Shown: in pieces, positions 3,399 through 42,617 of the stretch
Position numbering within the stretch: position 1 is the first letter of the stretch
Layout: each line of letters begins with the position of its first letter
Assembly: GCA_010015805.1 (NCBI GenBank)
Contig: ML978127.1
Span: 186,001 to 250,000, forward strand
DNA: 64,000 bases
Direction: 5' to 3'
Source of the DNA: Rhizodiscina lignyota
Lineage: Eukaryota
Notes under the pieces: generated by a model
What the model was told of the DNA's origin: nothing
The model's input: only the letters and a program-made list of their open reading frames with translations
Databases searched by the model: none
Made by a program: the position numbers and the translations under genes

Positions 3399-4538
3399 CG
3401 TAATGCTTTCGACTTAATGAACGGTTCTAGTTTGACGACGTCAACTCAGCGCCACGCTTTATAGATGCAGCACGATGCGCTTATATGTAATCCATGCCTT
3501 AATAAGCACTATGATGGTATACGAGAAGAGATAGACAATACTGATCGAAGAACATCTGACCGCAGCAACAATGACATTTCGATGGAAGCTAACCAAGCAA
3601 TATCAAGATTGTAAACTTCAGGTCAAGTCCACGGCGCCATAATCGGCTTACCGCCAGACACTCGCGCGAGTACCTTCAAATACGACGAACGCCTCTGGTA
3701 AAGACACAAAATTCAACAGGCGTATGAACTTGTTTCTATGGAAATGCTGACCTGAGCAAGATCTCCACGTAAAGTTCTCTCGTGAGCGTATGGACCCGAC
3801 TGAGGTAATGTGGAGAGGCTAGACGAGGTCTCGTTTCAGCAAAGGAAGTTCCTTAACTTGGTGCATCAGTCCGGCGCAAAATTCGTGGATTCAACAAGTC
3901 TGGTGTGGCTTGAGGATGCTGGTGGGATGAAGGCCGTCTATGAGACTCCTCTACCGTAACACAGCATAGCTGGCTACATCTATCGGCAAATCGTTCTGTG
4001 GCTTGCAGGTGGCCTCTGTTGAAAATCCTTCGGCAAATGACTAAACGCTTGCGCTCCACATGCTGCTTTGGTAGTTTGCCAGACACCAGGCATTTTTGGT
4101 GTTTTGAATCTATCTGTCCGAAACACAAGTTCATGGCGAAGTGTTCTCTAGATGTGGCAGTGCAGAATATTTCGCTTCCAATCGCTAAGTGCATCAGCTC
4201 GCCGTAATCCAGCTTGCTCGGCCTGGGTGACTGCCCCTCAGCTCCCGAGAGCTCTCTCGATTCGGACACCGCGGGAAGAACAATGTCAGCGGTGTAGTCG
4301 CATCGCGCAAAACGATATAAATATTAGATTATCGACTTACTGAATGAAATCTCCTAAGCTTGAGAAGTTAGCCTTAGGCAATGAAGTATATCAAAGTGCT
4401 TGGTTTCCCCGGCTACGCACAAGTTCAAATACATTTACGGCAAGAACCAATCAATTCTACATCTTGACACTCAGGCTTTCCTTTACCTAACTCTATCTAA
4501 TTCGGTCTTACACATACAATTTCCTCTGTTCTCTCACC

Positions 4539-6897
4539 ATGGTTCGAAAAGCAAAAGATCCTGTCATTGGTGAAGGTATCACGGTGACCGCACAGCAATC
4601 TCGCTTCCACGTTGACTCGGTTGAAGCTCCAACTCTGAAAGAGATTCTCGTGAAAGACCTTAGCATCTCTATTAACCAGCGAGAGCTTCTTGCCCATGCA
4701 GAGCTGTTCTTAAAAGAGGGTGGCCACTATGTGCTAGTGGGACGGAATGGCACAGGAAAATCGACTTTGCTGAAAGCATTGGCAGAGGGCATGATTCCCG
4801 GAATTCCCTGGAGCTTCAATATCCTCTTGCTTGGGCAGACGACGATCTCGGCGAGTGTAGAGGAAGATATGTCAAACTTGGGCATTCGGGACGAAACGGT
4901 GTTGCAGCATGTGGTTCGCAGTGATAAGAAGAGGGAAAGGTATATGCGGGAAGCTTCTCGTGAGCATTCGCCAATTCTTTTGGGCCGTTGCCGGCCGTAT
5001 ACGTTCTCTAATTGGCTCTATAGTCTTGTCGTCAGCGTTGGAGAGTACGACCGACCCCACAAAGCCTGTGACAGCATTCCGGCGGATCACTCATGAAAGG
5101 CTGGAGCTCAAGATGGAGGAATCAAGTCGGAGAGCCGACCGTATCAGCTCATCAAGAAGAGATGGCGCGAGAGGGTTAAAGGCCAGGAAGGCACTAGTCG
5201 CAGCAGAGGGAGAACTTGAAGCCTCCCAAGAAAAGCTCGGCCAAGAGCCTTCCGCAATCGACACGGAAGAGATTAGTCGGGAGACACAGGCTGCAACAGA
5301 GATGCTTGGAGACGTACAGAGTGCTCTGGAGCTGGTACGCAATTCTTAGGAGAGAGAGAAGAAATGAGCTGACAATATACAGATGGATGCTCCGGCAGCA
5401 GAAGCAAAAGCTCGTACCGTCCTGCGGGGTCTCGGCTTCTCTGTCGACAAAATCGAAGACTCCATGTCGCAGCTTTCCGGTGGATGGCGAACGAGGTGTA
5501 AAATTGCATGCGCACTGTGCCAGTATCCGGATATTCTTCTACTGGACGAACCGACAAACTTTCTCGATCTCCCGTCAATTATCTGGCTCCAGAACTATAT
5601 CCAAAGTCTGGAAAAGACCACCGTTGTGGTGGTTACTCATGATCGCGACTTTGCCGACGCCGCAGCGCAAGAGCTGCTCGTGTTGAGGAATCAGCAGCTC
5701 GAAACATTCCGCGGTAACCTCTCACTGTATGAAGCGGAGCGTTACAAGAACCAGAAATACATGGCACGTATGAAGGACGCTCAAGAGAAGCAGAAGAAGC
5801 ATATCGAGGCCACAATCCAAGGCAATATTCGGGCTGCGAAGCGAGCAGGTGATGATAAGAAGCTCAAGCAGGCAGCGTCCCGCCAGAAGAAGCTGGACGA
5901 CCGAATGGGGCTCGAAGTCTCGGCAAAGGGTACCAGGTTCAAGCTTAATAGAGACCGGGCAGGTCAGTATGGATTGTCAAGCCGGGCGGAGATCAAGATT
6001 GATCGCTTTGAGACTCCGGTGAGGCTGAACATACCGGTTGCAGTACCCGATCTGAGATTTCCTGGCGCACTGGTTAACCTGGAGAAGGTTTCGTTCGCAT
6101 ATCCCGGGAAGAAAAGGTTGGAAGTTTTGAAGGAAGTTAGCTTGACGATCCATCCTGGAGAAAGAATCGGCCTCGCTGGTCTTAATGGATCAGGAAAGAC
6201 AACGTTGGTGTCGCTTATCATAGGTTCCGGAGAGGGCGCTTCGAGCACGGGTGGCATGAGTCCGACGAGCGGAACGATAACGCGCCACTCAAGAGCAAAA
6301 TTCGCTAGATTTTCGCAGGACGCAGTTGAAGAGCTAGAGGAAACAGCTGCAAGGGAATCGCAGTTGACGGCTCTTGCGGATTTAATGAGACGTAGTGAAA
6401 ACAGTCTCACGGAGCAAGAGGCTCGCGGGATTCTGGGCGGCCTCGGGCTGCAAGGACCGATTGTATCAGACGTGCCAATCATTGCACTGTCTGGAGGTCA
6501 GAAGGTTCGATTGGCACTCGCAAAACTGTTATGGAATCCACCGCATTTGCTCGTGCTCGACGAAGTAACGACTCATCTGGATGCCGACACGATATTGGCG
6601 CTAGTATTGGCATTGCGAAGGTACGAAGGTGCACTACTGGTGGTGACGCATGACAGATTCTTCATGAGATGCGTGGTGGAGGGTGAGAGCCCATACAAAG
6701 AGGCAGATCGAGTTGGCCTGGAAGAGGAGGATGATGGGGATAGTGACGAGAGTGATGAGGATGGAACGGGGAAGAGGGGAGTGGTGTACAGGATGTTCAA
6801 GGGGAGTTTGAAGCTGCTTGAAGGGGGCATGACGCAGTACGAAGAGATTGCCTCAAGGGCGAGCTCGAAGTTTGGAAAGATTCCAGCAGGATTGTAG
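4539..6897 (+). CDS. Soluble ABC-F family ATPase (two nucleotide-binding domains, no transmembrane domain)
   Basis: NBD1 has GRNGTGKS, LSGGW, LLLDEPTN and THDR. NBD2 has GLNGSGKT, LSGGQ, LVLDEVTT and THDR. A charged linker joins them. Introns at 4960-5023 and 5335-5382 join the three ORF pieces in frame. Confidence 0.92.
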
Positions 6898-7700
6898 AGC
6901 TTGTGCTGAAGACCTGGCCACAAAGGTCAAAGCGGTCATATTTGCGCTCCATATTGTCATCATAACAGGGTATGGTCTTGATAGGAGACTGCTTCAGCGT
7001 GTCTGACTCGTGATATCGTTCTTGTTCGGAGACTTGCGGAGAAGTCTCCTAGGTTTTAGCGCTTGAAAATGAGGCTGCTCTGTGCGGGAGACGTGCAAAG
7101 GCAGCCCTGAGTATTGTTTTCGGAATGCCGGGAGAAAGATCAATTCAGCTTAGATTGGCAGGGAGACGACCATGGGCTAAATTCGTGGGAGCACTGCATT
7201 TCCTTGCAAGCCGTAGCAACGGACTAGACTCTCGTCGCCAGAAGCGACCTCTCCAAAGAGTGTGACGCTGTCCAAGACGGCTGCGGCAGGCTATATAGGG
7301 AAGGGGAGGCAGGGGATGTAAGGAGGCTAAAGGAGCAAAAGTCGGGGAGAGCTCAGGGGTGACTGACCCGGCGTCACGTTAGCGCGCGCCACGATCGTGG
7401 GCTGGCGTGCACGTCCCACATCGAAAAGGGACGGTACGTCTTTTGACGCTCTCTAAAACTGGCAAACATCGTTGCGTCTCTTTGCCCGTTTGCGTTTCCG
7501 CCGCGTCCTCCACCTTTTCTGTACATTTCCTACGCTCATTTCCCATCTTACTTCAATGTAGCCACTACAATCTCCAAATTTTCCGCTTTCCTTTCTACCC
7601 TAGTCATTCGTTAGCAAACCCCCGCGTCTCCGCATTTGCAACTTCTCCTGCCCTGTACCAATTGCTCTTAACTGTTCTCGACGCTCTTCCGAAGAGCAGC

Positions 7701-10004
7701 ATGTCGGAACAAGTACAAACGACTTCTTCGACGCCTGTTTCTACGCATGAATCATCTACCCCTGTTGCAACGACTACTGTCTCCACCACAAAGGCTCCGA
7801 AGGACAAGATCTGCCCCTTCTGCCAAACGCCGTACACAGCATCCTCACTTGGCAGACATCTTGACGCGTATATCCGACCCAAGAACCCAAAACCGGTCGA
7901 TGGCTTACACGACGTCGACAAGATTCGAGAGATGCGGCAAAGCATCACGCGGAGGCAGATGCTAAAGAAAGTGAACACCAAACGAGCATCATCTACTTCA
8001 CAGTCACGCAAAGTTTCTGGGGCAAGCTCCAAGCAACCTTCAACTGGAGACGGTGACGAAGATATGGACGACGACAGCCCGACCTCCCCTCTTACCTCGG
8101 CGCCACCGAAGAACCCGAACATGACAGAGAATGGGGAACAGATGCGGTGGAAGATAAATGAGCTCAGCTGGCATGATACGGGTGTGATGAAGAATATCCC
8201 TCCACGGTCGTTGTCAATTGGCTCGGAAGCCCAAAGAGACACATCGAGGCAGCGGAATCTGAAGTCTGGCTTGGAGTCACGACGGAGGGTTTCGGACGAG
8301 CTTGATACTGCTAAGGCAGCGGAGATGGCATTGAAGGAGGTCCTTGGTAAAGTGAAAGAGGCCAGTGCACGGTCGGTGCAGGCGGGCATTTTCGATTTCG
8401 ATCCTTATGAGCTCAACTTTCCTGCGCTCTGTCTTAAGATACTACCTTCGCCTCCTACTTTGCGGTCTCAAACCCCTTTCCCAACGAACGAATCGTGGAG
8501 TCTCTCTCCACCGGGCCAGAGACAGTGGGAGTCTCTGCAGCGTGCTGTAAAAGAGAAGCTTGTAGGATATCAGAGGGCTTTCAATGGGATCTCGGGGTCG
8601 TCGCCCCTGCTTACCCCACCCCCTGTGGACATGGACTTGAACCGGTTGAAACATCACTTGCACGAGGCCTACAGCAATTGGCAACGTCTACCGGATGCGC
8701 AGAAGCAAGAGACGTGGCAGTTGGAAATACTGCGATCATATTCTCTTGCCGAAGAGAATCGGAAGGATCTGCAAGATAGGTTGGATGTCACAATCAAGGA
8801 GAACGAGGAACTAAGGAGACAATTGGAAGTAATGAGACAGGCGCTTGAGGATGACGGCGTGGAAAGAGGTCGTGAGATCTCGCGCATCCCTTCTGTGCCT
8901 TCTATCTCTCCGCAGACAGTGCAAGAGATTTGGAAGCTTGGATTCGACACACGACAATGGGATTATGAGTCTTTGATCGAGAAGTGGAAAGCAGCAATGC
9001 GTGAACAGAACCAGGGTGCAAATGGAATGGCTGCGCAACGGAAGCTCTCCGCCGCTCCTGCGCTGACGGTGAATTCGAGGGCTGAAAAGCCAAAGGCTCG
9101 CCAGTCCAATGCGAGGGATAAGGCTATCCAAAGCGCTGCTGGATTGAATAGCCGTTCTGCATCACGGTCCAGATATCAGAGAACATCCGATCAGGGGATC
9201 GTGAATACAGACATGACGGGTCATCAACATGAGCAGAGTAATGACCCGGATGCAGACGCAGAAGCAGAAATGGATCATCCATCCCAGTTGCAACCGGTAC
9301 ATGTACACCATGGCCTTCCACAAGCGCGATCTCCCAGGCCGCCCACTCCGCAGATGAACACTCATTTATCTGCACATCCTTATCATGACCAACGTCGGTC
9401 TTCAGCACAGCTATCTCCACACTCGATGCCAGGCCAGCAGCGTCGCCATTCTACTCAGTTTCAGCTTTCACCGCAACCCCCGCAAGGTCAACAACAGTCG
9501 CATCCAGACACACTCAGTCGAGCACCGCAGCAGATGATGCAGTTTTCGCAAGCACCTCCTCTTCTGCAAATCCCACAAAACTCTGAGGCACAGAACATGC
9601 CAGTGCAATCATACACGACGCAGTCACTTCAACAACCAACGATGCAGAGCTGGATGCCACAGCATCCGCAGCACCCACAGGCTCACCAACAAGCCCCTAA
9701 CCCCGTACAAGCCCTCACGCCTGTTTCAGTCTCGATGCCAGACCAGCCGCAATTCAACCAGCCTACAATTGCGGACCCTCAGTTCCAGCATCTTGGGTTA
9801 CAAGTGCCTTCAAACGACGGAAGACGCAACTCGCATCCCATGATCGACCCTGGCCATCACATCGATATGCAAGGCGTCGAAGCGCCATCCTCCGCAGGGC
9901 CATTCATGAATCATAGGATGGCTCTTGGTATAGATGGTATGCCGATGGGGTATGTTGGGACTAACATGGGGATTGTCGGTGGCGGTGGAGGAAGAGTAGG
10001 ATGA
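7701..10004 (+). CDS. Uncharacterised protein with a CxxC..H zinc-binding-like motif, a coiled coil and a Q/P/H-rich low-complexity C-terminus
   Basis: Long intronless ORF with first ATG at 7701. It contains KICPFCQTPYTASSLGRHLD, a heptad-like segment (EENRKDLQDRLDVTIKENEELRRQLE) and a Q-rich tail. Confidence 0.8.
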   Translation: MSEQVQTTSSTPVSTHESSTPVATTTVSTTKAPKDKICPFCQTPYTASSLGRHLDAYIRPKNPKPVDGLHDVDKIREMRQSITRRQMLKKVNTKRASSTSQSRKVSGASSKQPSTGDGDEDMDDDSPTSPLTSAPPKNPNMTENGEQMRWKINELSWHDTGVMKNIPPRSLSIGSEAQRDTSRQRNLKSGLESRRRVSDELDTAKAAEMALKEVLGKVKEASARSVQAGIFDFDPYELNFPALCLKILPSPPTLRSQTPFPTNESWSLSPPGQRQWESLQRAVKEKLVGYQRAFNGISGSSPLLTPPPVDMDLNRLKHHLHEAYSNWQRLPDAQKQETWQLEILRSYSLAEENRKDLQDRLDVTIKENEELRRQLEVMRQALEDDGVERGREISRIPSVPSISPQTVQEIWKLGFDTRQWDYESLIEKWKAAMREQNQGANGMAAQRKLSAAPALTVNSRAEKPKARQSNARDKAIQSAAGLNSRSASRSRYQRTSDQGIVNTDMTGHQHEQSNDPDADAEAEMDHPSQLQPVHVHHGLPQARSPRPPTPQMNTHLSAHPYHDQRRSSAQLSPHSMPGQQRRHSTQFQLSPQPPQGQQQSHPDTLSRAPQQMMQFSQAPPLLQIPQNSEAQNMPVQSYTTQSLQQPTMQSWMPQHPQHPQAHQQAPNPVQALTPVSVSMPDQPQFNQPTIADPQFQHLGLQVPSNDGRRNSHPMIDPGHHIDMQGVEAPSSAGPFMNHRMALGIDGMPMGYVGTNMGIVGGGGGRVG

Positions 10005-11874: not shown

Positions 11875-14802
11875 ATGACTACCCCCGACACATCAGATCT
11901 CCGAGAACCTCTCCCCAGCCAGCAAAATGGAGATTCCAGCACAGCAGGCGACATAATAGCTACTGCCAGCATCGCAGTTGACGAATGTGTATGCAAAATA
12001 CCGCCATCCGCCTTGTTACGGATGCTTCACGGCGTGGGCGTGGCAACAAAGACCCCCGAGGGCATTATTGAACTAGTCGCTGCATGGATCTTGTCTCGAA
12101 GAGTTACTGGATTCCATACTCCAGATAACGATCAAATTGATGCAGATGTTTCCTTTCCACTTTCGAAATGGATTGATACGATAGACTCTAGCCATCTTAG
12201 AGAATCCGACGACTTTCTGTCACTGGCCAGCATGGCAATCGGAGTTGCATTTCTGCGGGAGTCCTGCCGGCAGGACCATCATGTCACCGATGCAGAACTC
12301 GAGATCGTCTGGCAACTCATTTTCAAAGCGCTCACATCTACGCATCTCAGCCAGCCCTTTTACACTGCATCTCGCAGCGCGCAAGGGTTCCTGTCAGTCG
12401 CCCTCTGTAGTCTGGTGAAGGAGAATGGAGATATTGACGAGCTATACCGACTTCATGTTTGGCTACCCGATGAGAAGCGTGGAAGTCACGAATTTGCAGT
12501 ACATTCCCACCAACCTTTTGCCCAGAGCTGGATACTAGCTGGTGAAGGAAAGGATCATGCTTATAAGGTTCAACGAAATGTAGACTCGGAAGTTGCCACT
12601 CACGCGGAATATGAGCTCGCATGGGAGATTGGCAGAAATCTTCCAGGCACTACTTACAGCGCAGATCATAAATATTCCGTTGTCAAAAATACAGGAAGAT
12701 TGGTTCACACTACAGAATTGGGCTCGGCGGCTCACACTCGAGACATGACTTATACGATCGACGCAAATTGCTTCCACACAACAGAGGTTGCGCCGGATGC
12801 GTTCCATGCTACTCTTTTCTTCTTCGACTCTCACCGTGGATTCGTGAAAGATGCAGGCGTCCTGGGCCCCAAAAATGGAGATTCTAATGTCGTGGTTCGT
12901 GACTCTGCCGGTGTGACACCAGCAGATCTCGCCAGCGCCGCTAATGCTGTACGCTCCTGGGAAAAGTACATGGAACGAGGTCGGAGATACGGTCGGCGGT
13001 CTGAATTGGAGCACGAATTTCGAGAATTCAACAATGCACTCAACGAGTGCGATGCAATCGAAAGTGTACCACATGCAACTCGCTACAGACATCTGGTTCT
13101 TGGAGAGTTGGGATACCTGAACAGGAAGTTTGGAAAGTACGAAGTAGCCAAAGACCAATTGGAGGAAGCCATCAGAGGCCTGGACGGCACTGTGGAGCAA
13201 GTGGAGGTTCGCGGTGAATTAGGCGTCGTTTACCGTCATATGAATCGTCTTGAGGATGCAAGACGCGCATTCCAGACTCAATACGACAAAGCGAGGCAGA
13301 TTAACAACGACCTTGCAACATGTCGTGCCATCGGAAATTTGGGCATGGTCAACTATCAGCTATCTCAGCAAAATCACGACGGTCAGTTACTGGAGCTAGC
13401 CATCCAACAGCAATTTGAACGCATTCGCGAGGCACGTCGTATCCAGGAGACAATGGAGGTTCGAACGACGGATCAGAGAAAGAAAGCCCAATGGACGAAA
13501 CAAGTGTCCTCCTGGGAGTCTATTGGCCTGGACCGTCTGTCCCTTTGCTATACAGCACAAGGAAACACAAAGGAGGCAGTCAAAATTTGTTTACAGTCAC
13601 AAAAGATTACATGCCGCTCAGAAGATCCTACTGTGATCGCATTCTCACGCTTTTTCTTCGGCCGGGCGTTGTTACACGACGGACAATGTGAGGAAGCACT
13701 AAAGCAGTTCAATTCTTCTGACAGATGTACTCCTGCTATTGCGTTATGTAAAGAGCCCTCTGAGGAACATCGGCGATATTTGAAGGAATTGGTGGATGCC
13801 GGGGCGAACTTGGATCTTACCGACGAGAATAGCTACACTGCATTGGATTACGCCGTGTTTAATGGCGACTCAGCAGCGGAGCAGATAGTGCTTGAAGGAC
13901 TCCACCAAAAGCTCGAAGGCGATGTTGGGCGCAAGATTGTGGAGAGTCAGAGAGAGGCAAGGCTTCGGAAAGCCTATCGCGAGCTCTTTCAGGAAAAGAT
14001 GCGACCAGTACTCCTACGTGGCGGCGGCCATAAGACACAAGAGAATCTTCGGCGTGTTTACGACAATGCTCTCGCTGAAGACAAGGGCAAGAGAGAGATG
14101 TTTGATCAGCTCAAATTTGTGCGCTACTCTAATTTCCTCAACTTTGGCAGGCTGCCCCGATCCAGCGACGGACTTGCGCAGCCACTTATGACTGGACCCC
14201 AGGGATGCTACGGTGAGGCTTCGGTTGATTTCGTCATCTTCTTCTCCTATCGATGGATCAATAAAGAAGGAGGAATATCCTTACCGGACGACATGATGAA
14301 CACCCAGTATCACAGAATGGTCGCCGCAACTGAAGAGTTCCTGAGACTTCATGGAAGAACAGATCGAGACAAATTGGGCATATGGATGGTAAGTCACTCT
14401 GTCACAGTAAACTACTGGTCGACATCTCATTCATCCGCTTGACAGGACTATGCCTGCGTAAACCAAGACGAACCGGCCTCAGGTGTCGCGGCACTTCCCA
14501 TGATTCTTGCTCAGTGCGACGCAATAATAAGTCTCGTCGATGATATTTTCTATAGCCGGGCGTGGTGCTGCGTCGAAAGTATCATTGCACAGACACTGAA
14601 GAAATCGTACAACGAGCATCTATGGTACGAGCATGTGCCTATTCAACTAGACGAGAGCGGAATCGGTGGTGGTGGGAGATGGGGCTTAAGGGAAGGGCCA
14701 ACAGATTTCCAGATTGTCATGGCAGAGAAAGACCTAACAAAAGAAGAGGAGGACCGACCCAAGGTCTTGTTCTTAGAAAGGCAGAGCAGGTTGTTGGGAT
14801 AA
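11875..14802 (+). CDS. Multidomain protein: cupin-like domain, TPR repeats, ankyrin repeat and C-terminal HET-like domain
   Basis: Cupin-like: YRLHVW..AVHSHQPFAQSWILAGEG..FHTTEV. TPR-like: LGELGYLNRKFGKYEVAKDQLEEA, GELGVVYRHMNRLEDARRAF, IGNLGMVNYQL. Ankyrin: GANLDLTDENSYTALDYAVFNG. HET motifs: FFSYRW, IWM|DYACVNQD, YSRAWCCVE. Intron 14389-14445 joins the two ORFs. Confidence 0.85.
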
Positions 14803-14814
14803 ATCACCAGTGCC

Positions 14815-15618
14815 ATGAAAGGTGAGTATTGAAACACCAAATGCAAGAGTAGACTGACCAACTTGCTCTGCTCGAACAGCGGTATGTTGCGAAACATTTC
14901 CTTCAAGTGACATGCTTAGGTTCGTTGAAGAACTCTGCCAGGAATTCGCATCCTCGAACACAGTTGCCACAGTTGAAAACTTCGACGAAGGATGCAGTGC
15001 TGCGGTAAAGGCAAAGCTGGCTTATAGCAGGATATGGATTTCAAATTGTGTTGAGAGAAGCTTATATATTTCTGACAGAGCATCTACTCTGCTCAGCACG
15101 GTAACCGTCGCATACGAAGCTCGGGAGATAATGCTGGACTGATATGACCGCAGTGCTACAGTTTGATGGCTCAACGCGACAATTGGCTCAATCTTCGCAC
15201 CGCTACACGTTCATCGAGATTGCAGAACTTAGTCGCAATGACAACCTCCAGATGAAGGAAATCTCGCTTGCCGCGCAACGAGACAGCACCGACATGCGCG
15301 CGATTGCTGTTCTGACGTTAGTGTTTCTGCCAGCTACATTTGTCGTTGTAAGAATCCAAAAAGGCGTCTCGGGTACATGCAGACCCACTACTGATGGCAT
15401 CATTTCTAGACGGTTTTCAGCACTAGCTTCTTCAACTTTACCAAGACTGGCCTGATTGTTCAGATCTTCATTGGGTCTACCGGGTCACTACTGTGGGCCT
15501 CACAGCAATCGTCGTAGCTTCCTGGCTCCTTTTCTCCTGGCGCATTCAGAAAAAACGCAAAATGGCTTCACGATCTGATAGCGATGGTAGAACAACGATG
15601 GCGAAGAAGACTGTCTAA
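14815..15618 (+). pseudogene. Truncated, frameshifted CorA-like (fungal Mg2+ transporter-like) gene relic
   Basis: It contains AAQRDSTDMRAIAVLTLVFLPATFV, then an intron, then TVFSTSFFNF. The second TM segment (HWVYRVTTVGLTAIVVASWLLFSWR) lies in a shifted frame near 15460. The long N-terminal cytoplasmic region is missing. Confidence 0.65.
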
Positions 15619-16228
15619 CTGAATGTCTGCGCGAGCATGGGAGCAGAGTCAGGGTACCGTCGAACCAATCCTCTTCCGGCTGCAAGATCCGCATTTCTGC
15701 CTAGATAACCTGACACTGTACATATTATACCAGGCTCCGCAGAAAGTTGGAAGTCCTACTTTCTAGAGGTATTCATGTCAGCGTACACTGCAAAAGTGCA
15801 TCCGATGAATGAGCGAACTCTTGCTTGAAACCCGGGTCTTCACATAAAGAATAAAGAACAAACCACGAAGTCAGCAAGAAGTACAAAAAGATCTGAAGAT
15901 CAAGCTGCTGCTTAAACAGCTGGAATACTAGCCCACGAACGCCATTTCACATATTCTGATTTGTGCCGCACAACCGTGGAAGATGCCTTCTCCTCTGTAT
16001 TCATCATCAGTATTCGTTCTTCTCTCGCCTACTTTCAACCAAGAGTATACTGGCACTGTTAATCAATTCAAAGTCTTGTTTCCGCACAAACTTTCCTTTG
16101 TATGAGACATTGTATCGCGTCCGCATCGACCTCGCGAGCGGAAACCTCACTCGAGCATGGGTTGAAATATGGCTTCCTCCTGCCTTCTTCCGTGTTCTTC
16201 TTTCATTTCAGAAACTCTCAAACCCATC

Positions 16229-25399: not shown

Positions 25400-26599
25400 T
25401 TACACAATCTTGAGTATCTTCGCCACTTTCTCCGTCACCCAAACCGCGCGTCTGTTTCCTGGTCCAGCCGTACCCAAACCCTCGTTGTCGAGGACTTGCT
25501 CCTGGGTCGCATTTAATTGACTTCGTCTGGCGGCCACAAATTGGATCCACTGGGCCTTTCGCTTTGATGGTTTCTTGCCAAAAGCTGCAAATGATCGGTT
25601 CCCCGTCACGTGGTAGATTGCGTTAGATTCCGGCATATCCGTTTCGATGTTGACGCCTGAAATTCTCTTCACAATAGCTGCAACGGTCGCTGCAGCTGAG
25701 TCATACTCAAGATTGCCACGAGGGATACAGCGCAGCGAGCCACATTCATGGATGAATATGACTCGGACTCCCAGATTCAGAACAGATAAACTTGGTATTT
25801 GTGGCAAGAAATATTGCCATAATGTATCCAGCAGCCCGCCAGCTTCTGTGGGTAGAGGTGGTGTTTCTATGACTATGTCGATGCGCAGGAGTCGTAACGT
25901 CAAGCTGTCGGCAATGACTTGCAGCATTTGCGGCTCTTTCATAGAACCAACTAGGTCGAGCTCAAGGTGCTTGAATTTACGTTGTGAGCTCTCGGATCTA
26001 TCTTGGATGAACGCTCGCAGCACATGAGATGTGACATGAGGAAGTTCAGAGAGGAGGTGGGGGTAGTCATCGGTTTCGCGCTTGAAGCTGAATGCATTTT
26101 TGCCGTAGAGGACATCAGTGCCTTCGTCATACATCTGTCGACACGTTTCCAGGATGGACAAGTTCTTGTCGCGAAAGTTTGGAGTAGTGTACGTAAAGCG
26201 TGTGCTGTGTCTCCAGTTGCCATTGTGCCCCAAGCCTTTGCCATTCGAATGTTGCTTCTCAGAGACCTGCTCCTCATAGTCTTCCACATCGGAATCTTCC
26301 TCATGTGAGACTTCTGAAGATGTATCCCACAGTCCTTTTGGAATGCCCAACGCCATGCCGTGACAGCATTCTTCGAAATCATTGTGTGGGCACTTTTCAA
26401 TCCACGTTGACCGGTAGGTATGCTTAACATTTGGAACCGATACAAAGGCTTCGCCGAAGGCGTCCCAAAGCTCAAAATCGACTGAAAGCACTTGCACGAG
26501 GCCGTTCAAGCACAAGACATATTGACAGATCTCATCGCGTAGTTCTCGTGGAAGTTTCAGCAGCGGGAAAGGACGATCGTTGACCGGTAGGTTTGACAT
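25400..26599 (-). CDS. F-box-like (LPRELRD-motif) fungal protein, paralog 1
   Basis: FPLLKLPRELRDEICQYVL, then LSILETCRQMYDEGTDVLYGKNAFSF, then FIQDRSESSQRKFKHLELDL. Intronless. Confidence 0.78.
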   Translation of the reverse strand: MSNLPVNDRPFPLLKLPRELRDEICQYVLCLNGLVQVLSVDFELWDAFGEAFVSVPNVKHTYRSTWIEKCPHNDFEECCHGMALGIPKGLWDTSSEVSHEEDSDVEDYEEQVSEKQHSNGKGLGHNGNWRHSTRFTYTTPNFRDKNLSILETCRQMYDEGTDVLYGKNAFSFKRETDDYPHLLSELPHVTSHVLRAFIQDRSESSQRKFKHLELDLVGSMKEPQMLQVIADSLTLRLLRIDIVIETPPLPTEAGGLLDTLWQYFLPQIPSLSVLNLGVRVIFIHECGSLRCIPRGNLEYDSAAATVAAIVKRISGVNIETDMPESNAIYHVTGNRSFAAFGKKPSKRKAQWIQFVAARRSQLNATQEQVLDNEGLGTAGPGNRRAVWVTEKVAKILKIV

Positions 26600-27149
26600 T
26601 GTGTGATTTGTTGTCCTCTCTATAAGGGATATCGAACTAGAGTGCAGAGAGTAGATGGCGTTGCCGTGTGTTGTAGAACTTGACGTCGATGAAGCGTACG
26701 TGTTCAGGCAACAGTGTTTGAGTGTAAGGTTGGAAAGAGCGGAGGGAGCCGCCAATCTGTGTTCTTTCCAACCAACGTGTCTTTCGCCAACCCGTGTACC
26801 AGAATAACTGCAGAGTGTCGGTGGCGAGGAACACATTCAAGCTCCACACATTGGCATGAGGCCTACTTCGCAACGCCTCAGAACCAACCTTACTTTCGAC
26901 ACTTTCTCGGTGCACTGGCGGAAACACGCGACACTCCACTTGATCGCTACTCTTCAGTCACTGCTACACGCGTTAGCCTCCATTGTCAATTAGACACGAT
27001 TGGTGATTCTACAATCTACACCAACCTCTGCGATCGAACTCCAGCGATCGAACGTCAAATACATTCCCAAGCCCGCGAGCTTCAGTCACTTCCCTCTCCC
27101 GCTTTCACCTAGCGCCAATTCGGCAACACAATTCTTCTATTGCGGCAAT

Positions 27150-28475
27150 ATGGTGCACATTCTCAATGGCCTCCCTCGAGAAATCAGGGATCACATTTAT
27201 CGACACCTTGCCGTCCAAGACTTCATAGGAGGAGAACGGATCAATATAACTGCTGTGCGAGTGAGCTTGTCGCACAGCACGAGGGACGACAGTGCAGTGC
27301 GCTCAGGATGGTCCAGTGTAGAGTTGAAGGACGATACCACTAGCGCCGCTGGCCTTGGTCTTGATTTTCCTGCCGAATACAGAAACAGGATATTTCATGG
27401 TGGTGTCAACGAAGGCCAATATCCTGAAGAAAGCCAAAGGGGATTCCATCTAAAGCCAGTTGATGTAATTATCGAGGATAAGTTCTTTGAGACTTACCAG
27501 CGCTGCACAGACACCCCGATACCATCATTGGCTCTTATGAGGACCTGCCGACAGGTCTATGCTGAAATGACCGAAGTGTTCTATCGAGAGAACAAATTCT
27601 GCTTCCTCTCGACATCCAACTTTCCCCTATCGACGCCAAGCTCGTTCATTGCGATCAACTTTCTGAACGACCGATCGCAGGAAGCACTTAAGAATATCAG
27701 ACACGTGAGCCTAAAACTCGAGCTCGCAAAGGGAAGAATAGTTACTGGACAGAAGGGAATACCTGAAGACGATATTGACGATGATATCTATTGTGTCTGT
27801 CCAAACAGTATTCGCAACTTATGGCGGATTTTCAGTCGAATGGCTCTCCAAACGCTCCGTATTCAGCTTGAAGACAAGGATTACGACCTAAACAGGGGGT
27901 TGGACAACCTCATTTACGATTCTGACTGGATCGATGAATTCCAAAAGCTTCCAAACCTTCGACGAATATGGGTTGGCATTGGGGTGGATACGGACGAAGG
28001 TTGTCAGATAACTGACGATGGGTTACGCTTCGAGATCTTTCGTGCCATTCGTGATAAAAAGCACGAACTCCGAAGCCCTGTCGGACCATCATCCAGTTTG
28101 TCTCTGGAAAGAGTGTCAAAGGACGTCAACAAGATTGTGGCCAAAGTAGCTCCACATCTACACAGAGTGATGAGAAAAAGACCCAGATCACGGGTAGATA
28201 TTCTTGCCACAGTTCACCGGACAACCAAACGACGAGTCGCGTGGTGGACACTTCCAAGACAGCGAGTCTGGTTTGTGATGCATAACGAGAACAACAACCG
28301 AGTGCGACTCCCACACCTTCGGCACCGCGAGAAGTCGAGCGATCTTCCTACAATCAGAAACAAAAGTTGGGAGGTCATTCCACATGACGTTTTCAACGGG
28401 CTCCCTCCTGGGGTAAAGAGGCGAGATATCTGGCTCACGAAGTATTGTAAACTTGGACAAGGCGGGAGCGAATAG
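27150..28475 (+). CDS. F-box-like (LPRELRD-motif) fungal protein, paralog 2
   Basis: ILNGLPREIRDHIYRHL, then LALMRTCRQVYAEMTEVFYRENKFCF, then FLNDRSQEALKNIRHVSLKL. Intronless. Confidence 0.78.
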   Translation: MVHILNGLPREIRDHIYRHLAVQDFIGGERINITAVRVSLSHSTRDDSAVRSGWSSVELKDDTTSAAGLGLDFPAEYRNRIFHGGVNEGQYPEESQRGFHLKPVDVIIEDKFFETYQRCTDTPIPSLALMRTCRQVYAEMTEVFYRENKFCFLSTSNFPLSTPSSFIAINFLNDRSQEALKNIRHVSLKLELAKGRIVTGQKGIPEDDIDDDIYCVCPNSIRNLWRIFSRMALQTLRIQLEDKDYDLNRGLDNLIYDSDWIDEFQKLPNLRRIWVGIGVDTDEGCQITDDGLRFEIFRAIRDKKHELRSPVGPSSSLSLERVSKDVNKIVAKVAPHLHRVMRKRPRSRVDILATVHRTTKRRVAWWTLPRQRVWFVMHNENNNRVRLPHLRHREKSSDLPTIRNKSWEVIPHDVFNGLPPGVKRRDIWLTKYCKLGQGGSE

Positions 28476-29025
28476 CTTGGTGGACGCCCAGGCTCAGGGG
28501 CTGAGTGGTTATCGAGGGCAACCGATTGAACCGAACACGTGTGGATTTCAGAGAGTGGGCATTGACTTCAATTGCTGCAAGAGAATCGTGATTTTCTGGA
28601 GGTTATCAAAGCGAGATTGACTCAGTCTCTCAAGGCATGCTGTGGCTTTAAATTGCAATTCTGGCTGACTACACGCTTCATTATCGTCAGAAAATACTAT
28701 AGCAATTGCCAGGTAATGATTAAGGAGTTCGTTGCAACAAAAATATCTTCCAAGCCAAGAACTTTATTGCCCGTTAGAGTAAAGTTTCTAGATTATGCTA
28801 CCCCTGCCAAGCTGTCGTCTCGATCCTCATTGTCGGACCTACCTCAGCCCAACGGCTTGAGCATACCCTTCAAGATGAACGCGATGTTGGAACCAAAAAA
28901 ATTCACCTGACTAACATTCCAATACAATTCGACACTGACCCTCCACGGCGACCAGCCAGCCTGGCAAAACGAAGCTTTCTTGAATTCCGGCGCATTGAAA
29001 AGGGAAGCTCCAAAGCATTTAGACG

Positions 29026-30327
29026 ATGGCTCACTTCCTCGACCTCCCGCGTGAGCTCAGAGATCAAGTTTATCGAGAACTTCTTGTGAGACCAAGGGTC
29101 ATCATTCAAGACCGACGCATTCATCACCCCACTTCAGGCAGATCTCATTGGATGGGGATAATACACAACATCCGAGGAGGACGACGCGTTGTTCAAAATA
29201 GGGGCATCGAAACATATGAGATCCGGCGCGACGAAAGATGCAACAACCCAGAGATACAGCTTTTACGTGTTTGTCGTGAAATCAATCGCGAAGCATCACA
29301 GCTGTTTTACGTAGAGAACAGTTTTGCCTTCGAAACTAAGCTCACACCCGAGGAGAGACTTCCGTTCGCAACCCCCCCAAGCGTCGTTGCGATGCACTTC
29401 CTGGGCGATCGCTCAGAGAGTGTTCTGCGAAGCATTCGCTCTGTTGAGGTCAGGCTGGACACTGAATCGTCATGTACTCAACCATTGGAATGGAGAGTAG
29501 ACCACGATCAGATCCCACTTTGCTCGAACGCCATTTTGGCCTTGTGGGAAACCTTTATGAGGATGGAATTGCGGAATCTGGCACTTCATTTCCACGTACA
29601 TAAACAGGACCTAGAAGGCTTCATTAAGCGAATGACAACTTCCGATGCAGCGTGGATCAATCAAATCCAGAAGATCCAAACGTTGCAAAATTTATCTCTC
29701 ACTTGGTCCACGAAGCCCGAGGACAATCCAGTTCCACTAATTAATGAGGGCCTAACGTCTAGGGGCGAACTTATGTTTCCTTCTTTCGAGATCGCCGTGA
29801 GGAGCCCGGATCGTACCATCTCTATATATTCTGAAGAGTATGCACCAAAGGGAGCAACCTTGAATGATTTGACCAGGCTCCTGCGCACTGTGGCCGCAAA
29901 AATCGCCCCACAGAGCTTATACCATACAATTCAGCATTGTCCTCCAACTGGCCAGCTTCAGTTCTGGGGGAAGGTGGTCCGGACTAGATATCGCGACATA
30001 CGCGTGGATGAACAGTTCAGGCATCGCCTGTGGCTCGGGATAAGCAGCGAAAGTAAATGCAAAGTGTCACCGGATTTGGAGGAGCCCGAAGCACCGAAAG
30101 AACGTCATGCTACAGAGCTACTGAAATTCCGGAACCAGGACTGCATTCCCGGGTCCATCTTTGGAAGACGTATACCCGATAATGCTCCTTACGATACCTT
30201 CGAAGAAGATGAAGACCATACTCTATATGACGTTTTCGGACTGGTGGATCGTGAAAGTGAAGATGAGGATGATCCTGTTCTTGATTCTCGAGAGGTGTAC
30301 ATAACCAGTGATTTACTAAGGTTCTAG
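29026..30327 (+). CDS. F-box-like (LPRELRD-motif) fungal protein, paralog 3
   Basis: HFLDLPRELRDQVYRELL, then IQLLRVCREINREASQLFYVENSFAF, then FLGDRSESVLRSIRSVEVRL. Intronless. Confidence 0.78.
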   Translation: MAHFLDLPRELRDQVYRELLVRPRVIIQDRRIHHPTSGRSHWMGIIHNIRGGRRVVQNRGIETYEIRRDERCNNPEIQLLRVCREINREASQLFYVENSFAFETKLTPEERLPFATPPSVVAMHFLGDRSESVLRSIRSVEVRLDTESSCTQPLEWRVDHDQIPLCSNAILALWETFMRMELRNLALHFHVHKQDLEGFIKRMTTSDAAWINQIQKIQTLQNLSLTWSTKPEDNPVPLINEGLTSRGELMFPSFEIAVRSPDRTISIYSEEYAPKGATLNDLTRLLRTVAAKIAPQSLYHTIQHCPPTGQLQFWGKVVRTRYRDIRVDEQFRHRLWLGISSESKCKVSPDLEEPEAPKERHATELLKFRNQDCIPGSIFGRRIPDNAPYDTFEEDEDHTLYDVFGLVDRESEDEDDPVLDSREVYITSDLLRF

Positions 30328-40655: not shown

Positions 40656-41276
40656 CCTAGCGAACCATAAGAAACGATAACCCTGGACATATTTCGTTTC
40701 TGTGGTCCTGGTTGAAGACTGTCTCCGGGCTCCTTGGCTACGGACTGGTGTAGCAGGTTTACTCTTCCACAGGAACTAGCCCCCGAATCACTGAAGTGAA
40801 CGAGGCAGATAACATAGGTTAAAGGCACGATGGAACAGAAGGAACGAATTGAGATACAGCAATTAGGGAGTGAACTTTGATTATTTCAATGTCTCTTATT
40901 AATATCAACATTCTCTCAAGGGTGGAATGTGGAGGGGCGGTTTGCTCGGAAACCTCCATTCGACTTAGCTGAACCAACGACAAAAATAACAATTCTGCCG
41001 CCCATTACTGTGAAAAATAGACACTTCAAGTGATTATTAATTTACCTGACTCATCTCAATATGAAGTGAATCCGCCGGGCATGAATTAATGCATCACTGC
41101 GCTTCGGAAGCACGCGCTAAATAGTGACACGGAAGTGGCCCCCTTCTTGTCGGCTCTTCCTCATCTTCAGCAAAACATTATGATCTCACACGAACCGAAT
41201 CAAGCTTCTGACTTTACTTTACCTACTTCAACTGATAGTTTCGTTGTTTCCATCTCCATGTGAAAGCAACATCATC

Positions 41277-42617
41277 ATGGCTAAGGCAGCCGATGCTTCA
41301 AGTTCACCGCAATCCGTTGACAGACCTATTCGCTCCCCCTTTACTGAACTCCCGCGTGAGCTCCGCGACAAGATCTACCGCGATCTTCTCGTGATTCCCA
41401 AAGTCGTCATTGATACAAGACCTGTATCCGAATTGGCAGGTTCCGACTCTAACCCGAAGCTACGTCGTTCGACATGGCGCGCTGATGGAGACGATCGCAA
41501 TCGCCGCAAATTCGACGACTATTGTATGGTTACTTATGGTCGGCCGAAAAAGCAGAAATACGAGGAAGAAAACTACAATTTGGACCTGCATATCATGGGC
41601 ACCTGTCGTGATATGTATCGTGAGGCCACGAAAATATTCTACGCAGAGAACATATTCCACTTTCCACATGTCAGATATCTCAGTCCGGCTGTCCAGTTCA
41701 CGCCCGTGGCAACTTTGGTCGCTCGATTCTTGCAAGACCGGCCCTCCGAAGCTCGAATGATGATCAGATCTATCATATTCAATGCATACGTCTGCAGTCC
41801 CGGAAACTTGATATCACATATTCTGAAGCCGTTCTCTTACTGGTATGGTTCCCGGCGCGGGAGGCGGCGGCGGCGGCGGCGAGCTCAACGCGAACCCACG
41901 AGAGAGCTTGCTACTTCAAGTAGTATGAATACTCTTTGGGATCTACTGAAGGATATGCGAATTAGGGAGCTCTCGATTTATCTCTTTGATGCCGTTGAAG
42001 GGGCAATGGCCGAGCAGGCCGAGCCTGAGGAGAACTTTAACGGGGACGTTTATGCCCTCGACACTCACTGGACGTCACAAATGACTACTCTGCCGTTCCT
42101 CAAGCAGTTCAGTATCATAGTAATTGACGACAGACAGCATCATATCGAAGTAAAAGAAGAGTACATACATTTCGAATTCAACGAGCGCCGAAAACAGGGT
42201 GTCAAGAATTGGGCCAATTGTCTGTGAGAGCTGATCCAGCAGATCGTCCCACCCGATCTCTTACGGAAAATGCCCGTTACTGTACATGGCGAAAGACAAG
42301 CAGAGGTTTGTTTATATAACAAGGAAAGCAAATACGACGTCGATATCTATCTAGACTTTCTGTGGGAGAGGAACATCTACTTCTTATGCCTGAGCGTAGC
42401 GAATGGGAAATCAAGTCAGCCTCCCAATGGAGTCGCTGATTGCTCCCATCCAATGCCAGAAGAACTCAAGGATCGTGCACACGCTAAACTAAGAATCGTA
42501 CGGACGGACGTTGTGAAGCCTGAGAAGCTGGATGCCAAGCAGATGAGTAAAGAGTGGATCTTTTTCTACGAAGATATCTCACATTTAATCACGTCTGAAG
42601 GATCAGGGGTGGGTTGA
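41277..42617 (+). pseudogene. F-box-like (LPRELRD-motif) paralog 4 with one in-frame TGA
   Basis: PFTELPRELRDKIYRDLL, then MGTCRDMYREATKIFYAENIFHF, then FLQDRPSEARMMIRSI. The TGA at 42225-42227 is followed by 14 sense codons that run in frame into ORF 42270-42617. Confidence 0.7.

Follow-up and report, generated by a model that had tools for sequence, protein, structure and literature searches.

The 64,000-nucleotide window analyzed here (Rhizodiscina lignyota, assembly GCA_010015805.1, contig ML978127.1, positions 186,001 to 250,000) carries on its forward strand an intact, conserved gene for a single-chain protein, in which an N-terminal helical-cupin module (N-module) is followed by TPR and ankyrin repeats, a helical "pre-C" segment and a C-terminal HET-like domain (C-domain). 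On balance, we think that this protein joins a sensing or regulatory front end to a divergent HET-type, TIR-like C-terminal domain, which would be enzymatic or act in signaling, in one chain that contains no NTPase. An earlier note, made from the sequence alone, had proposed that the cupin module acts with a TIR-type effector. That idea is independently supported by bacterial relatives of the module, which are fused to TIR_2 domains and are in some cases encoded in operons with SLATT/two-transmembrane (2TM) genes.

The open reading frame (ORF) starts at the ATG at 11875, and the spliced product of 956 residues, encoded by two exons (Table 1), is letter-for-letter identical to database entry P0003, the NCBI hypothetical protein NA57DRAFT_40367 [Rhizodiscina lignyota]. 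Annotation of this protein goes no further than "hypothetical," and relatives are labeled "TPR repeat protein 28" or, in UniRef, "Heterokaryon incompatibility...". The single spliced ORF of about 955 residues described in the earlier note is therefore real, and every motif that it quoted is found in the product: RLHVW (residue 192), HSH (210), SWILAG (218), FHTT (300), SYRW (791), WMDYACVNQD (837), which spans the exon junction, and RAWCCVE (876). The intron position looks conserved. Most of the short (<160 residues) C-domain fragments from other assemblies, 79 of 91, start at profile positions 60-84, which correspond to the start of exon 2, and therefore the intron position appears to be widely conserved; in a fungal family member recovered from a metagenome (L006), exon 1 ends at the matching profile position. 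Prokaryotic gene callers break such fungal genes into pieces, and dozens of metagenome-assembly proteins of ~107 residues (P0274-P0372) consist of exon 2 of this family alone.

The gene is not a chance ORF, since 325 of the 7,999 database candidates scored in a search with exon 1 reached E ≤ 1e-3, and those listed match over the whole length. The best 120 of the 325 (E ≤ 4.5e-216) are 44-62% identical over nearly the whole length. The matches listed come from Dothideo-, Eurotio-, Sordario- and Lecanoromycetes, Boletales (Astraeus, and Pisolithus with several paralogues) and Umbelopsis, a patchy distribution across fungi. In an alignment of 51 full-length fungal members, from which all conservation counts given here are taken, mean pairwise identity is 0.32 for the helical subdomain, 0.61 for the cupin, 0.53 for the TPRs, 0.64 for the ankyrin region, 0.50 for pre-C and 0.58 for the C-domain, and there is no hypervariable repeat region. 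A quick maximum-likelihood tree of these members recovered genus-level clades, with an unresolved backbone on which Boletales and Umbelopsis are placed among ascomycete groups with weak support. The tree therefore allows no conclusion on horizontal transfer.

As for the N-module, an AlphaFold2 model built from 56 aligned sequences (predicted local distance difference test [pLDDT] 85.9, predicted template-modeling score 0.84) shows helices at residues 44-153 followed by an all-β part at 165-341. Foldseek against the PDB returned 26 matches at E ≤ 1e-3, nearly all of them cupins and headed by thiol dioxygenases (8vni, E 4.2e-5, then 6xb9, 4tlf and 4qm9). VIA-align gave a Z of 12.8 to the cupin 4e2g, with a root-mean-square deviation (RMSD) of 2.0 over 91 residues, and placed 433 of 999 chains at a Z of at least 8, the best 50 being nearly all cupin or RmlC-like. 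These high scores confirm a double-stranded β-helix, on which the earlier note had staked its claim of a His-rich, cupin-like N terminus. The histidines are conserved as well: H194, H210, H212 and H301 are invariant in 51/51 fungal members and remain invariant or nearly so once bacterial relatives are added, and H311 is conserved in fungi only. We take H210-x-H212 and H301 to sit at the metal-ligand positions of classic cupin motifs 1 and 2, with Q217 presumably in the place of the Glu of classic cupins. Judged by its sequence, the module matches the metal-binding His pattern of cupins, with HxH in motif 1 and His in motif 2.

No cupin family of Pfam or NCBIfam matched the protein at E ≤ 1, and PDB sequence searches with the N-module, as a single sequence or as a 25-sequence profile, gave no match at E ≤ 10. 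The module is thus shown to be a distinct family that has no name in Pfam, NCBIfam or the PDB sequences. Its closest likeness is to 3-His cupin thiol dioxygenases (cysteine, 3-mercaptopropionate and mercaptosuccinate dioxygenases, ADO), which provide the top Foldseek matches and share with it N-terminal helices before the barrel and an HxH...H pattern with Gln where classic cupins have Glu. In contrast to these enzymes, it has no match to CDO_I or another cupin Pfam family and none to a PDB sequence, and the template-modeling (TM) score by target is only ~0.5.

The survey of the module and its partners that the earlier note had suggested was run, and it uncovered bacterial TIR_2 fusions, stand-alone modules and C-domain fusions. 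When residues 30-350 were scored against 1.84 billion representatives, 227 reached E ≤ 1e-3; by this count, the cupin-module family is small and rare. To classify the 147 representatives that were newly listed, we used local profiles taken out of the alignment of the family. The C-domain is present in 37 of them, mostly in the full architecture; the TPRs are missing from others (e.g., P0168 and P0140), and both TPRs and ankyrin are missing from P0187, P0161 and P0212, which keep the C-domain. Many of the 147 are stand-alone modules or fragments of ~320-360 residues, and in some the module comes after an unexplained N-terminal stretch of 100-430 residues. A structure search of the ESM Atlas found clusters of stand-alone modules, both fungal (TM 0.90) and bacterial (TM 0.77-0.82). 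In P0171, P0172, P0194 and P0205, the cupin-module profile matches in two pieces, ~45-75 residues apart, which reflects either an insertion or unspliced introns in the gene models.

The bacterial fusions came from 43 representatives with odd architectures. Four of these exceed the Pfam cut-off for TIR_2 (28 bits), namely P0231 (30.7), P0241 (38.4), P0243 (39.8) and P0267 (39.3), and in all four TIR_2 lies N-terminal to the cupin module; among the rest, 38 have no family and one has a sub-threshold TrkA_C. Five further proteins show a TIR-like N terminus by alignment. When the fungal C-domain was compared by hhalign with the TIR segment of the nine bacterial relatives, the probability was 0.3%, i.e., no relation was detectable, and therefore the fungal and bacterial pairings are not one inherited fusion. 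These comparisons show the same rare cupin module joined twice, independently, to TIR-type domains: cupin...HET-like in fungi and TIR_2-cupin in bacteria.

Genomic context points in the same direction for some of the bacterial genes. We obtained 3 loci among 36 pattern matches in a scan of species-representative genomes and 5 among 94 in a metagenome scan, the latter including the fungal L006. In L001, from a Chitinophagaceae metagenome-assembled genome (MAG), a downstream 166-residue ORF overlaps the stop of the TIR-cupin gene by 10 nucleotides (nt) and matches the PADLOC 2TM effector PDLC00712 (E 7e-19), with Pfam SLATT families just below cut-off. The downstream ORFs of L004 (overlap 20 nt, PDLC00712 E 2.3e-16) and L007 (overlap 11 nt, PDLC00712 E 4.1e-14; SLATT_fungal 27.5 against a cut-off of 26.5) are alike. 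TIR_2 is above the Pfam cut-off for the L001 protein only, those of L004 and L007 being TIR-like by alignment. A PLD/DrmC-like gene upstream of the L001 pair suggests a defense-island setting, and in L003 an NLR-like gene converges on the cupin-module gene (Table 1). L002 and L008 show nothing telling, and the L005 sequence ends 50 nt after the gene. By gene order, L001, L004 and L007 have the layout of type VII Thoeris, where the genes for a TIR protein and a SLATT effector share an operon.

TIR + SLATT operons have been defined as type VII Thoeris, in which the TIR protein senses infection and makes cyclic ADP-ribose, which activates the SLATT effector (bioRxiv 10.64898/2025.12.03.692087). 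The bacterial N-module relatives resemble this system (ThsB plus the SLATT effector ThsH) in that they are TIR_2 or TIR-like proteins whose genes overlap a SLATT/2TM gene. The fungal protein differs from it, having a HET-like domain in place of TIR_2, in reverse order, and a SLATT partner is shown for bacterial genes only. The word "cupin" is absent from the main text of that preprint, whose supplements may list such TIR proteins (10.64898/2025.12.03.692087). In the open-access literature, we found no description of the C-terminal HET-like architecture or of a cupin-TIR pairing, and none of the papers listed connects a cupin with TIR or HET proteins, whether of bacteria or of fungi.

Turning to the C-domain, the model of residues 682-956 consists of three helices and then an α/β core, with strands at model residues 105-110, 153-156, 183-187, 216-223 and 235-240. 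The blocks FFSYRW, WxDxxCVxQ and RAWCxVE are invariant or nearly so, and S791, Y792, W837, C842, Q845, R876, W878, C879 and E882 are invariant in 51/51 members. We take these three to be the HET blocks, partly on the basis of consensus motifs. In the model, a helix follows the third strand (183-187), and E882 comes five residues into it, presumably where enzymatic TIRs carry their catalytic Glu; the W-C-x-x-E context resembles the catalytic-Glu motif of those enzymes.

Profile searches place the domain near, and outside, the Pfam HET family (PF06985, gathering cut-off 22.5 bits). PF06985 matches 37/51 members at E ≤ 1 (best 0.0014), always sub-threshold, and four of five relatives scored 10.6-16.8 bits, in each case over the first blocks of the profile. 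The TIR models PF13676 and PF01582 gave nothing at E ≤ 1 on P0003 and are not among the 25 commonest families of the 51 members. In the ESM Atlas, three clusters with 99-100% PF06985 membership aligned with the C-domain over 140-144 residues at TM 0.62-0.64, a comparison of predicted models on both sides. We call the domain HET-like, and not a member of PF06985, because it has the blocks, the sub-threshold Pfam matches and the resemblance to HET models but falls below the Pfam cut-off. Thus, the "all three HET motifs" of the earlier note are present as motifs, whereas membership of the Pfam family is not reached.

A PDB sequence search with the C-domain gave no match at E ≤ 10, and Foldseek found nothing at E ≤ 1e-3, its best five matches being plant TIR domains (RUN1, E 0.052, probability 0.94). 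VIA-align of the Foldseek list gave RPPT-TIR (Z 5.9, RMSD 3.6 over 102 residues), SPARTA TIR-APAZ (5.6) and MyD88 (5.5), and an exhaustive search of 48,161 chains gave the IL-1RAcPb TIR (5.7), MyD88 (5.4) and a LOG protein (5.4), with nucleoside deoxyribosyltransferases at about 5; these VIA-align scores lie in the range that the tool calls common. TIR domains lead all three comparisons. This suggests a TIR/SLOG-like fold for the modeled domain, for which the PDB evidence alone is weak. The C-terminal, TIR-related HET domain of the earlier note thus survives as a HET-like domain at the C terminus of a protein with no NTPase, a layout reversed as it had said, with TIRs as best PDB matches but weak ones (Z < 6).

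When the C-domain search was restricted to shorter proteins, 107 matched. The 17 classified proteins of at least 160 residues were all pieces or shorter forms of the same architecture (for example, TPR-ANK-preC-Cdom, ~470-490 residues), and the remaining matches were mostly exon-2 fragments. None of the shorter-protein matches bore a PF06985 label; the word index probably misses canonical HET domains, so this is no proof that the C-domain is confined to the family. Separately, the ESM Atlas contains C-domain-like domains (TM 0.65-0.77) in proteins of haptophytes and other eukaryotes, where they are combined with HNOB (haem NO-binding), MORN or ankyrin domains, and these predicted models hint at other pairings of a sensor with a HET-like domain outside fungi. 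The haptophyte matches agree with the report of HET homologues in haptophytes and other protists, in which the three blocks were also mapped onto TIR secondary structure (Dyrka et al. 2014, PMC4986451).

Between the two ends of the protein, TPR_12 (52.2 bits, cut-off 30.1), TPR_2 (30.3, cut-off 27) and Ank_4 (23.6-23.9, cut-off 22.7) all pass in Pfam, and NCBIfam adds just weak TPR and ankyrin look-alikes on the 956-residue product. The pre-C segment travels with the C-domain in nearly all classified non-fragment proteins. There is no Pfam match to NACHT or NB-ARC at E ≤ 1 on P0003 and no Walker-A pattern in it; such a pattern occurs in 2/51 members, inside the cupin and chance-like. The TPR-like repeats, the ankyrin repeat and the missing P-loop and NACHT/NB-ARC had all been read correctly from the sequence.

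Compared with known systems, the C-domain shares with HET proteins (PF06985; HET-E/D/R, TOL, HET-6, BH) the blocks SYxW, WxDxxCxxQ and RxWxxxE and the α/β fold. However, it is C-terminal where theirs is usually N-terminal, is always preceded by a conserved helical segment, and belongs to a family that is preserved between phyla, in contrast to the poor conservation described for HET genes (PMC10197012). To enzymatic TIRs (plant TIR-NLRs, SARM1, bacterial ThsB), it is likened by the best solved-structure matches and, in the model, by the invariant Glu early in the helix after the third strand; it differs in having no TIR Pfam match and a Z of only 5.7-5.9. With HET-NACHT-WD40 fungal NLRs, it has in common a HET-type domain combined with TPR/ankyrin-type repeats, but there is no NACHT/NB-ARC and no P-loop, the order is reversed, and the repeats are conserved, not hypervariable.

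How might such a protein work? In the cupin, H210, H212 and H301 would hold a metal, with H194 close by, and the module could signal that a ligand is present, that the redox or metal state has a certain value or that a cue has come from an invader. The repeats (TPR and ankyrin) would serve as scaffold or second binding surface. Upon activation, the HET-like domains may self-associate, and the Glu of the RAWCxVE block (E882) may cleave NAD+ or a related nucleotide, which would lead to depletion, with death or stasis, or else to a nucleotide signal. Since the family is conserved and not polymorphic, a response to foreign or stress cues would be expected, not allorecognition. Where TPR and ankyrin have been lost, the cupin module and the C-domain are still found together, and this retention, together with the two independent fusions, makes it most economical to suppose that the module is a regulator or trigger of the TIR-type domain. 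A predicted complex between the N-module (residues 30-350) and the C-part (residues 683-956) scored 0.00, which gives no answer and is evidence neither way. We also offer, tentatively, a wider proposal that we regard as possible but doubtful: that TIR-type effectors have in the helical-cupin module a dedicated partner for sensing a trigger or for regulation, kept across the bacteria-fungi divide. In bacteria, it would be the sensor half of Thoeris-like TIR proteins signaling to SLATT pores, and in fungi its fusion to a HET-type domain via TPR/ankyrin would make a conserved, NTPase-free immune or stress receptor.

Several findings weigh against joining a sensor to a TIR-like effector in this way. 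P0003 has neither a Pfam HET nor a Pfam TIR match at E ≤ 1; the C-domain matches solved structures weakly (best Z 5.9), with 0/48,161 chains at a Z of at least 8, and LOG and nucleoside deoxyribosyltransferase folds score almost like TIRs. In profile comparison, no similarity of the C-domain to the TIR segment of the bacterial relatives could be detected. Among the nine bacterial relatives, the Glu at the aligned TIR position is kept in five but missing in four, one of which has a SLATT partner, and a SLATT gene is found in only 3/6 bacterial loci with a visible downstream region. Finally, the fungal family is strongly conserved across phyla (47-62% identity in Ascomycota, Boletales and Umbelopsis), its TPRs included (0.53), and the genes around it in the window are ordinary (MAT1, divergently upstream, an ABC-F ATPase and others), with no other HET gene there. 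This differs from the fast-evolving, poorly conserved HET/NLR genes portrayed in PMC10197012. The "one-protein sensor-effector" of the earlier note is therefore backed by the bacterial cupin-TIR fusions and SLATT operons, while conservation and housekeeping neighbors are unlike those of typical het or immune genes.

The strong conservation, that of the repeats included, and these surroundings leave real room for a non-immune regulatory enzyme. The protein might be a conserved housekeeping or stress-metabolism enzyme, in which the cupin is a metal-dependent oxygenase or isomerase, the C-terminal Rossmannoid processes nucleotides or nucleosides as LOG or nucleoside 2-deoxyribosyltransferase do, and the repeats hold a partner. 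High identity across fungal phyla with every domain conserved, the housekeeping neighbors, the thiol dioxygenases heading the N-module list and the near-TIR scores of LOG (Z 5.4) and deoxyribosyltransferases (Z 4.7-5.0) would all fit. We nevertheless consider it unlikely, given that bacterial relatives of the module occur in conflict-system contexts (TIR_2 fusion, SLATT/2TM pairing, a TIR-NB-ARC-WD40 neighbor), that the blocks and sub-threshold Pfam matches of the C-domain indicate HET and not LOG or deoxyribosyltransferase, and that the distribution is patchy, with several paralogues in Pisolithus. It is distinctly improbable, in our judgment, that the HET-like domain is a non-catalytic adaptor, recruiting HET/TIR-like proteins by homotypic contacts on a cupin-TPR-ANK scaffold. 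Invariance of R876, W878, C879 and E882 in 51/51 members is easier to reconcile with an active site than with an interface only, and the W-C-x-x-E context resembles the catalytic-Glu motif of enzymatic TIRs, but some bacterial relatives have no Glu. An adaptor role for HET has been proposed (Dyrka et al. 2014, PMC4986451). A polymorphic heterokaryon-incompatibility (allorecognition) gene under balancing selection, suggested by the HET-like domain and by one UniRef label, is very improbable because of orthologue-like conservation across phyla, conserved repeats with none hypervariable and housekeeping surroundings; few HET genes are het genes (PMC10890737, PMC10197012), and we rejected it as main explanation on cross-phylum conservation.

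Returning to the proposed cupin-regulated, TIR-like effector, its interest lies in what is missing from HET biology. The mechanism by which HET kills cells is unknown, and enzymatic activity of HET domains is so far unshown, according to PMC10890737 and PMC10197012. Most HET genes evolve fast and are hard to compare, whereas the present family is conserved and single-chain, and it offers an invariant candidate catalytic Glu with an attached, probably metal-binding, putative sensor module. With the fungal and bacterial pair, one can ask if domains of the HET type are enzymes like TIRs, which ligand or state is read by the cupin, and to what extent TIR immunity in bacteria and HET biology in fungi have components in common. 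If the module is indeed a partner of TIR effectors, it would be a tractable entry to HET enzymology and to how HET is switched on. What is new is the unnamed cupin family and its cross-kingdom TIR link; HET and TIR-type proteins themselves are known background.

Table 1. Features of the cupin-TPR-ankyrin-HET-like gene, other window features and bacterial genes (positions in the window or, for L001 and L003, in the locus named)
Feature	Position	Strand	Basis or remark
Exon 1, codons 1-838	11875..14388	+	Translation; joined to exon 2 = P0003
Intron, 57 nt, GT..AG, in-frame TGA inside	14389..14445	+	Splits the HET-like domain between M838 and D839
Exon 2, codons 839-956 and stop	14446..14802	+	TAA at 14800-14802
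N-terminal helical subdomain (aa 40-160)	11992..12354	+	Model helices 44-153; identity 0.32, most variable folded part
Cupin barrel (aa 161-345)	12355..12909	+	Model, Foldseek, VIA-align; H194, H210, H212, H301 conserved
TPR region (aa ~365-610)	12967..13704	+	Pfam TPR_12, TPR_2 above cut-off; 51/51 relatives
Ankyrin repeat region (aa 611-682)	13705..13920	+	Pfam Ank_4; 49/51 relatives at E ≤ 1
Helical pre-C segment (aa 683-775)	13921..14199	+	Model helices 2-61 (model residue i = aa i+681)
HET-like/TIR-like domain (aa 776-956)	14200..14799, intron-interrupted	+	Model pLDDT 91.4; three blocks
Domain blocks	E882 codon 14575-14577		FFSYRW 789-794; WMDYACVNQD 837-846; RAWCCVE 876-882
L001 (Chitinophagaceae MAG), TIR-cupin gene	8001-9473		TIR_2 above Pfam cut-off
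L001, 574-aa PLD-like protein	4432-6156	+	PLDc_2, weak DrmC-like PADLOC matches; upstream of the TIR-cupin/SLATT pair
L003 (Lentzea sp.), TIR_2-NB-ARC-WD40, 1,264 aa	8586-12380	-	NLR-like; convergent, 13 nt from the cupin-module gene
Short ORFs directly downstream	14815-15620	+	Several
873-aa open frame	7383-10004	+	No Pfam family at E ≤ 1
ORFs with DUF7730 and/or 2EXR	25400-26836	-	In 25400-30327
	26994-28475	+	In 25400-30327
	29023-30327	+	In 25400-30327
	41184-42227	+	

Three further observations concern the rest of the window. Directly downstream of the gene, an ATG lies 13 nt past the TAA, followed by GTGAGT, and the short ORFs there end in two hydrophobic stretches, ..AIAVLTLVFLPATFVV.. 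and ..GLTAIVVASWLLFSW..; Pfam CorA reaches only E 0.12, and there is one database relative (P0378). The ORFs could belong to a small 2TM gene or to a remnant. With a membrane protein beside a TIR-like gene, the layout recalls the bacterial SLATT pairing, but nothing supports such a link for the fungal gene. Upstream lies a long open frame that matches no Pfam family (Table 1). Farther downstream, the four ORFs with DUF7730 and/or 2EXR form a local cluster of a fungal expansion family.

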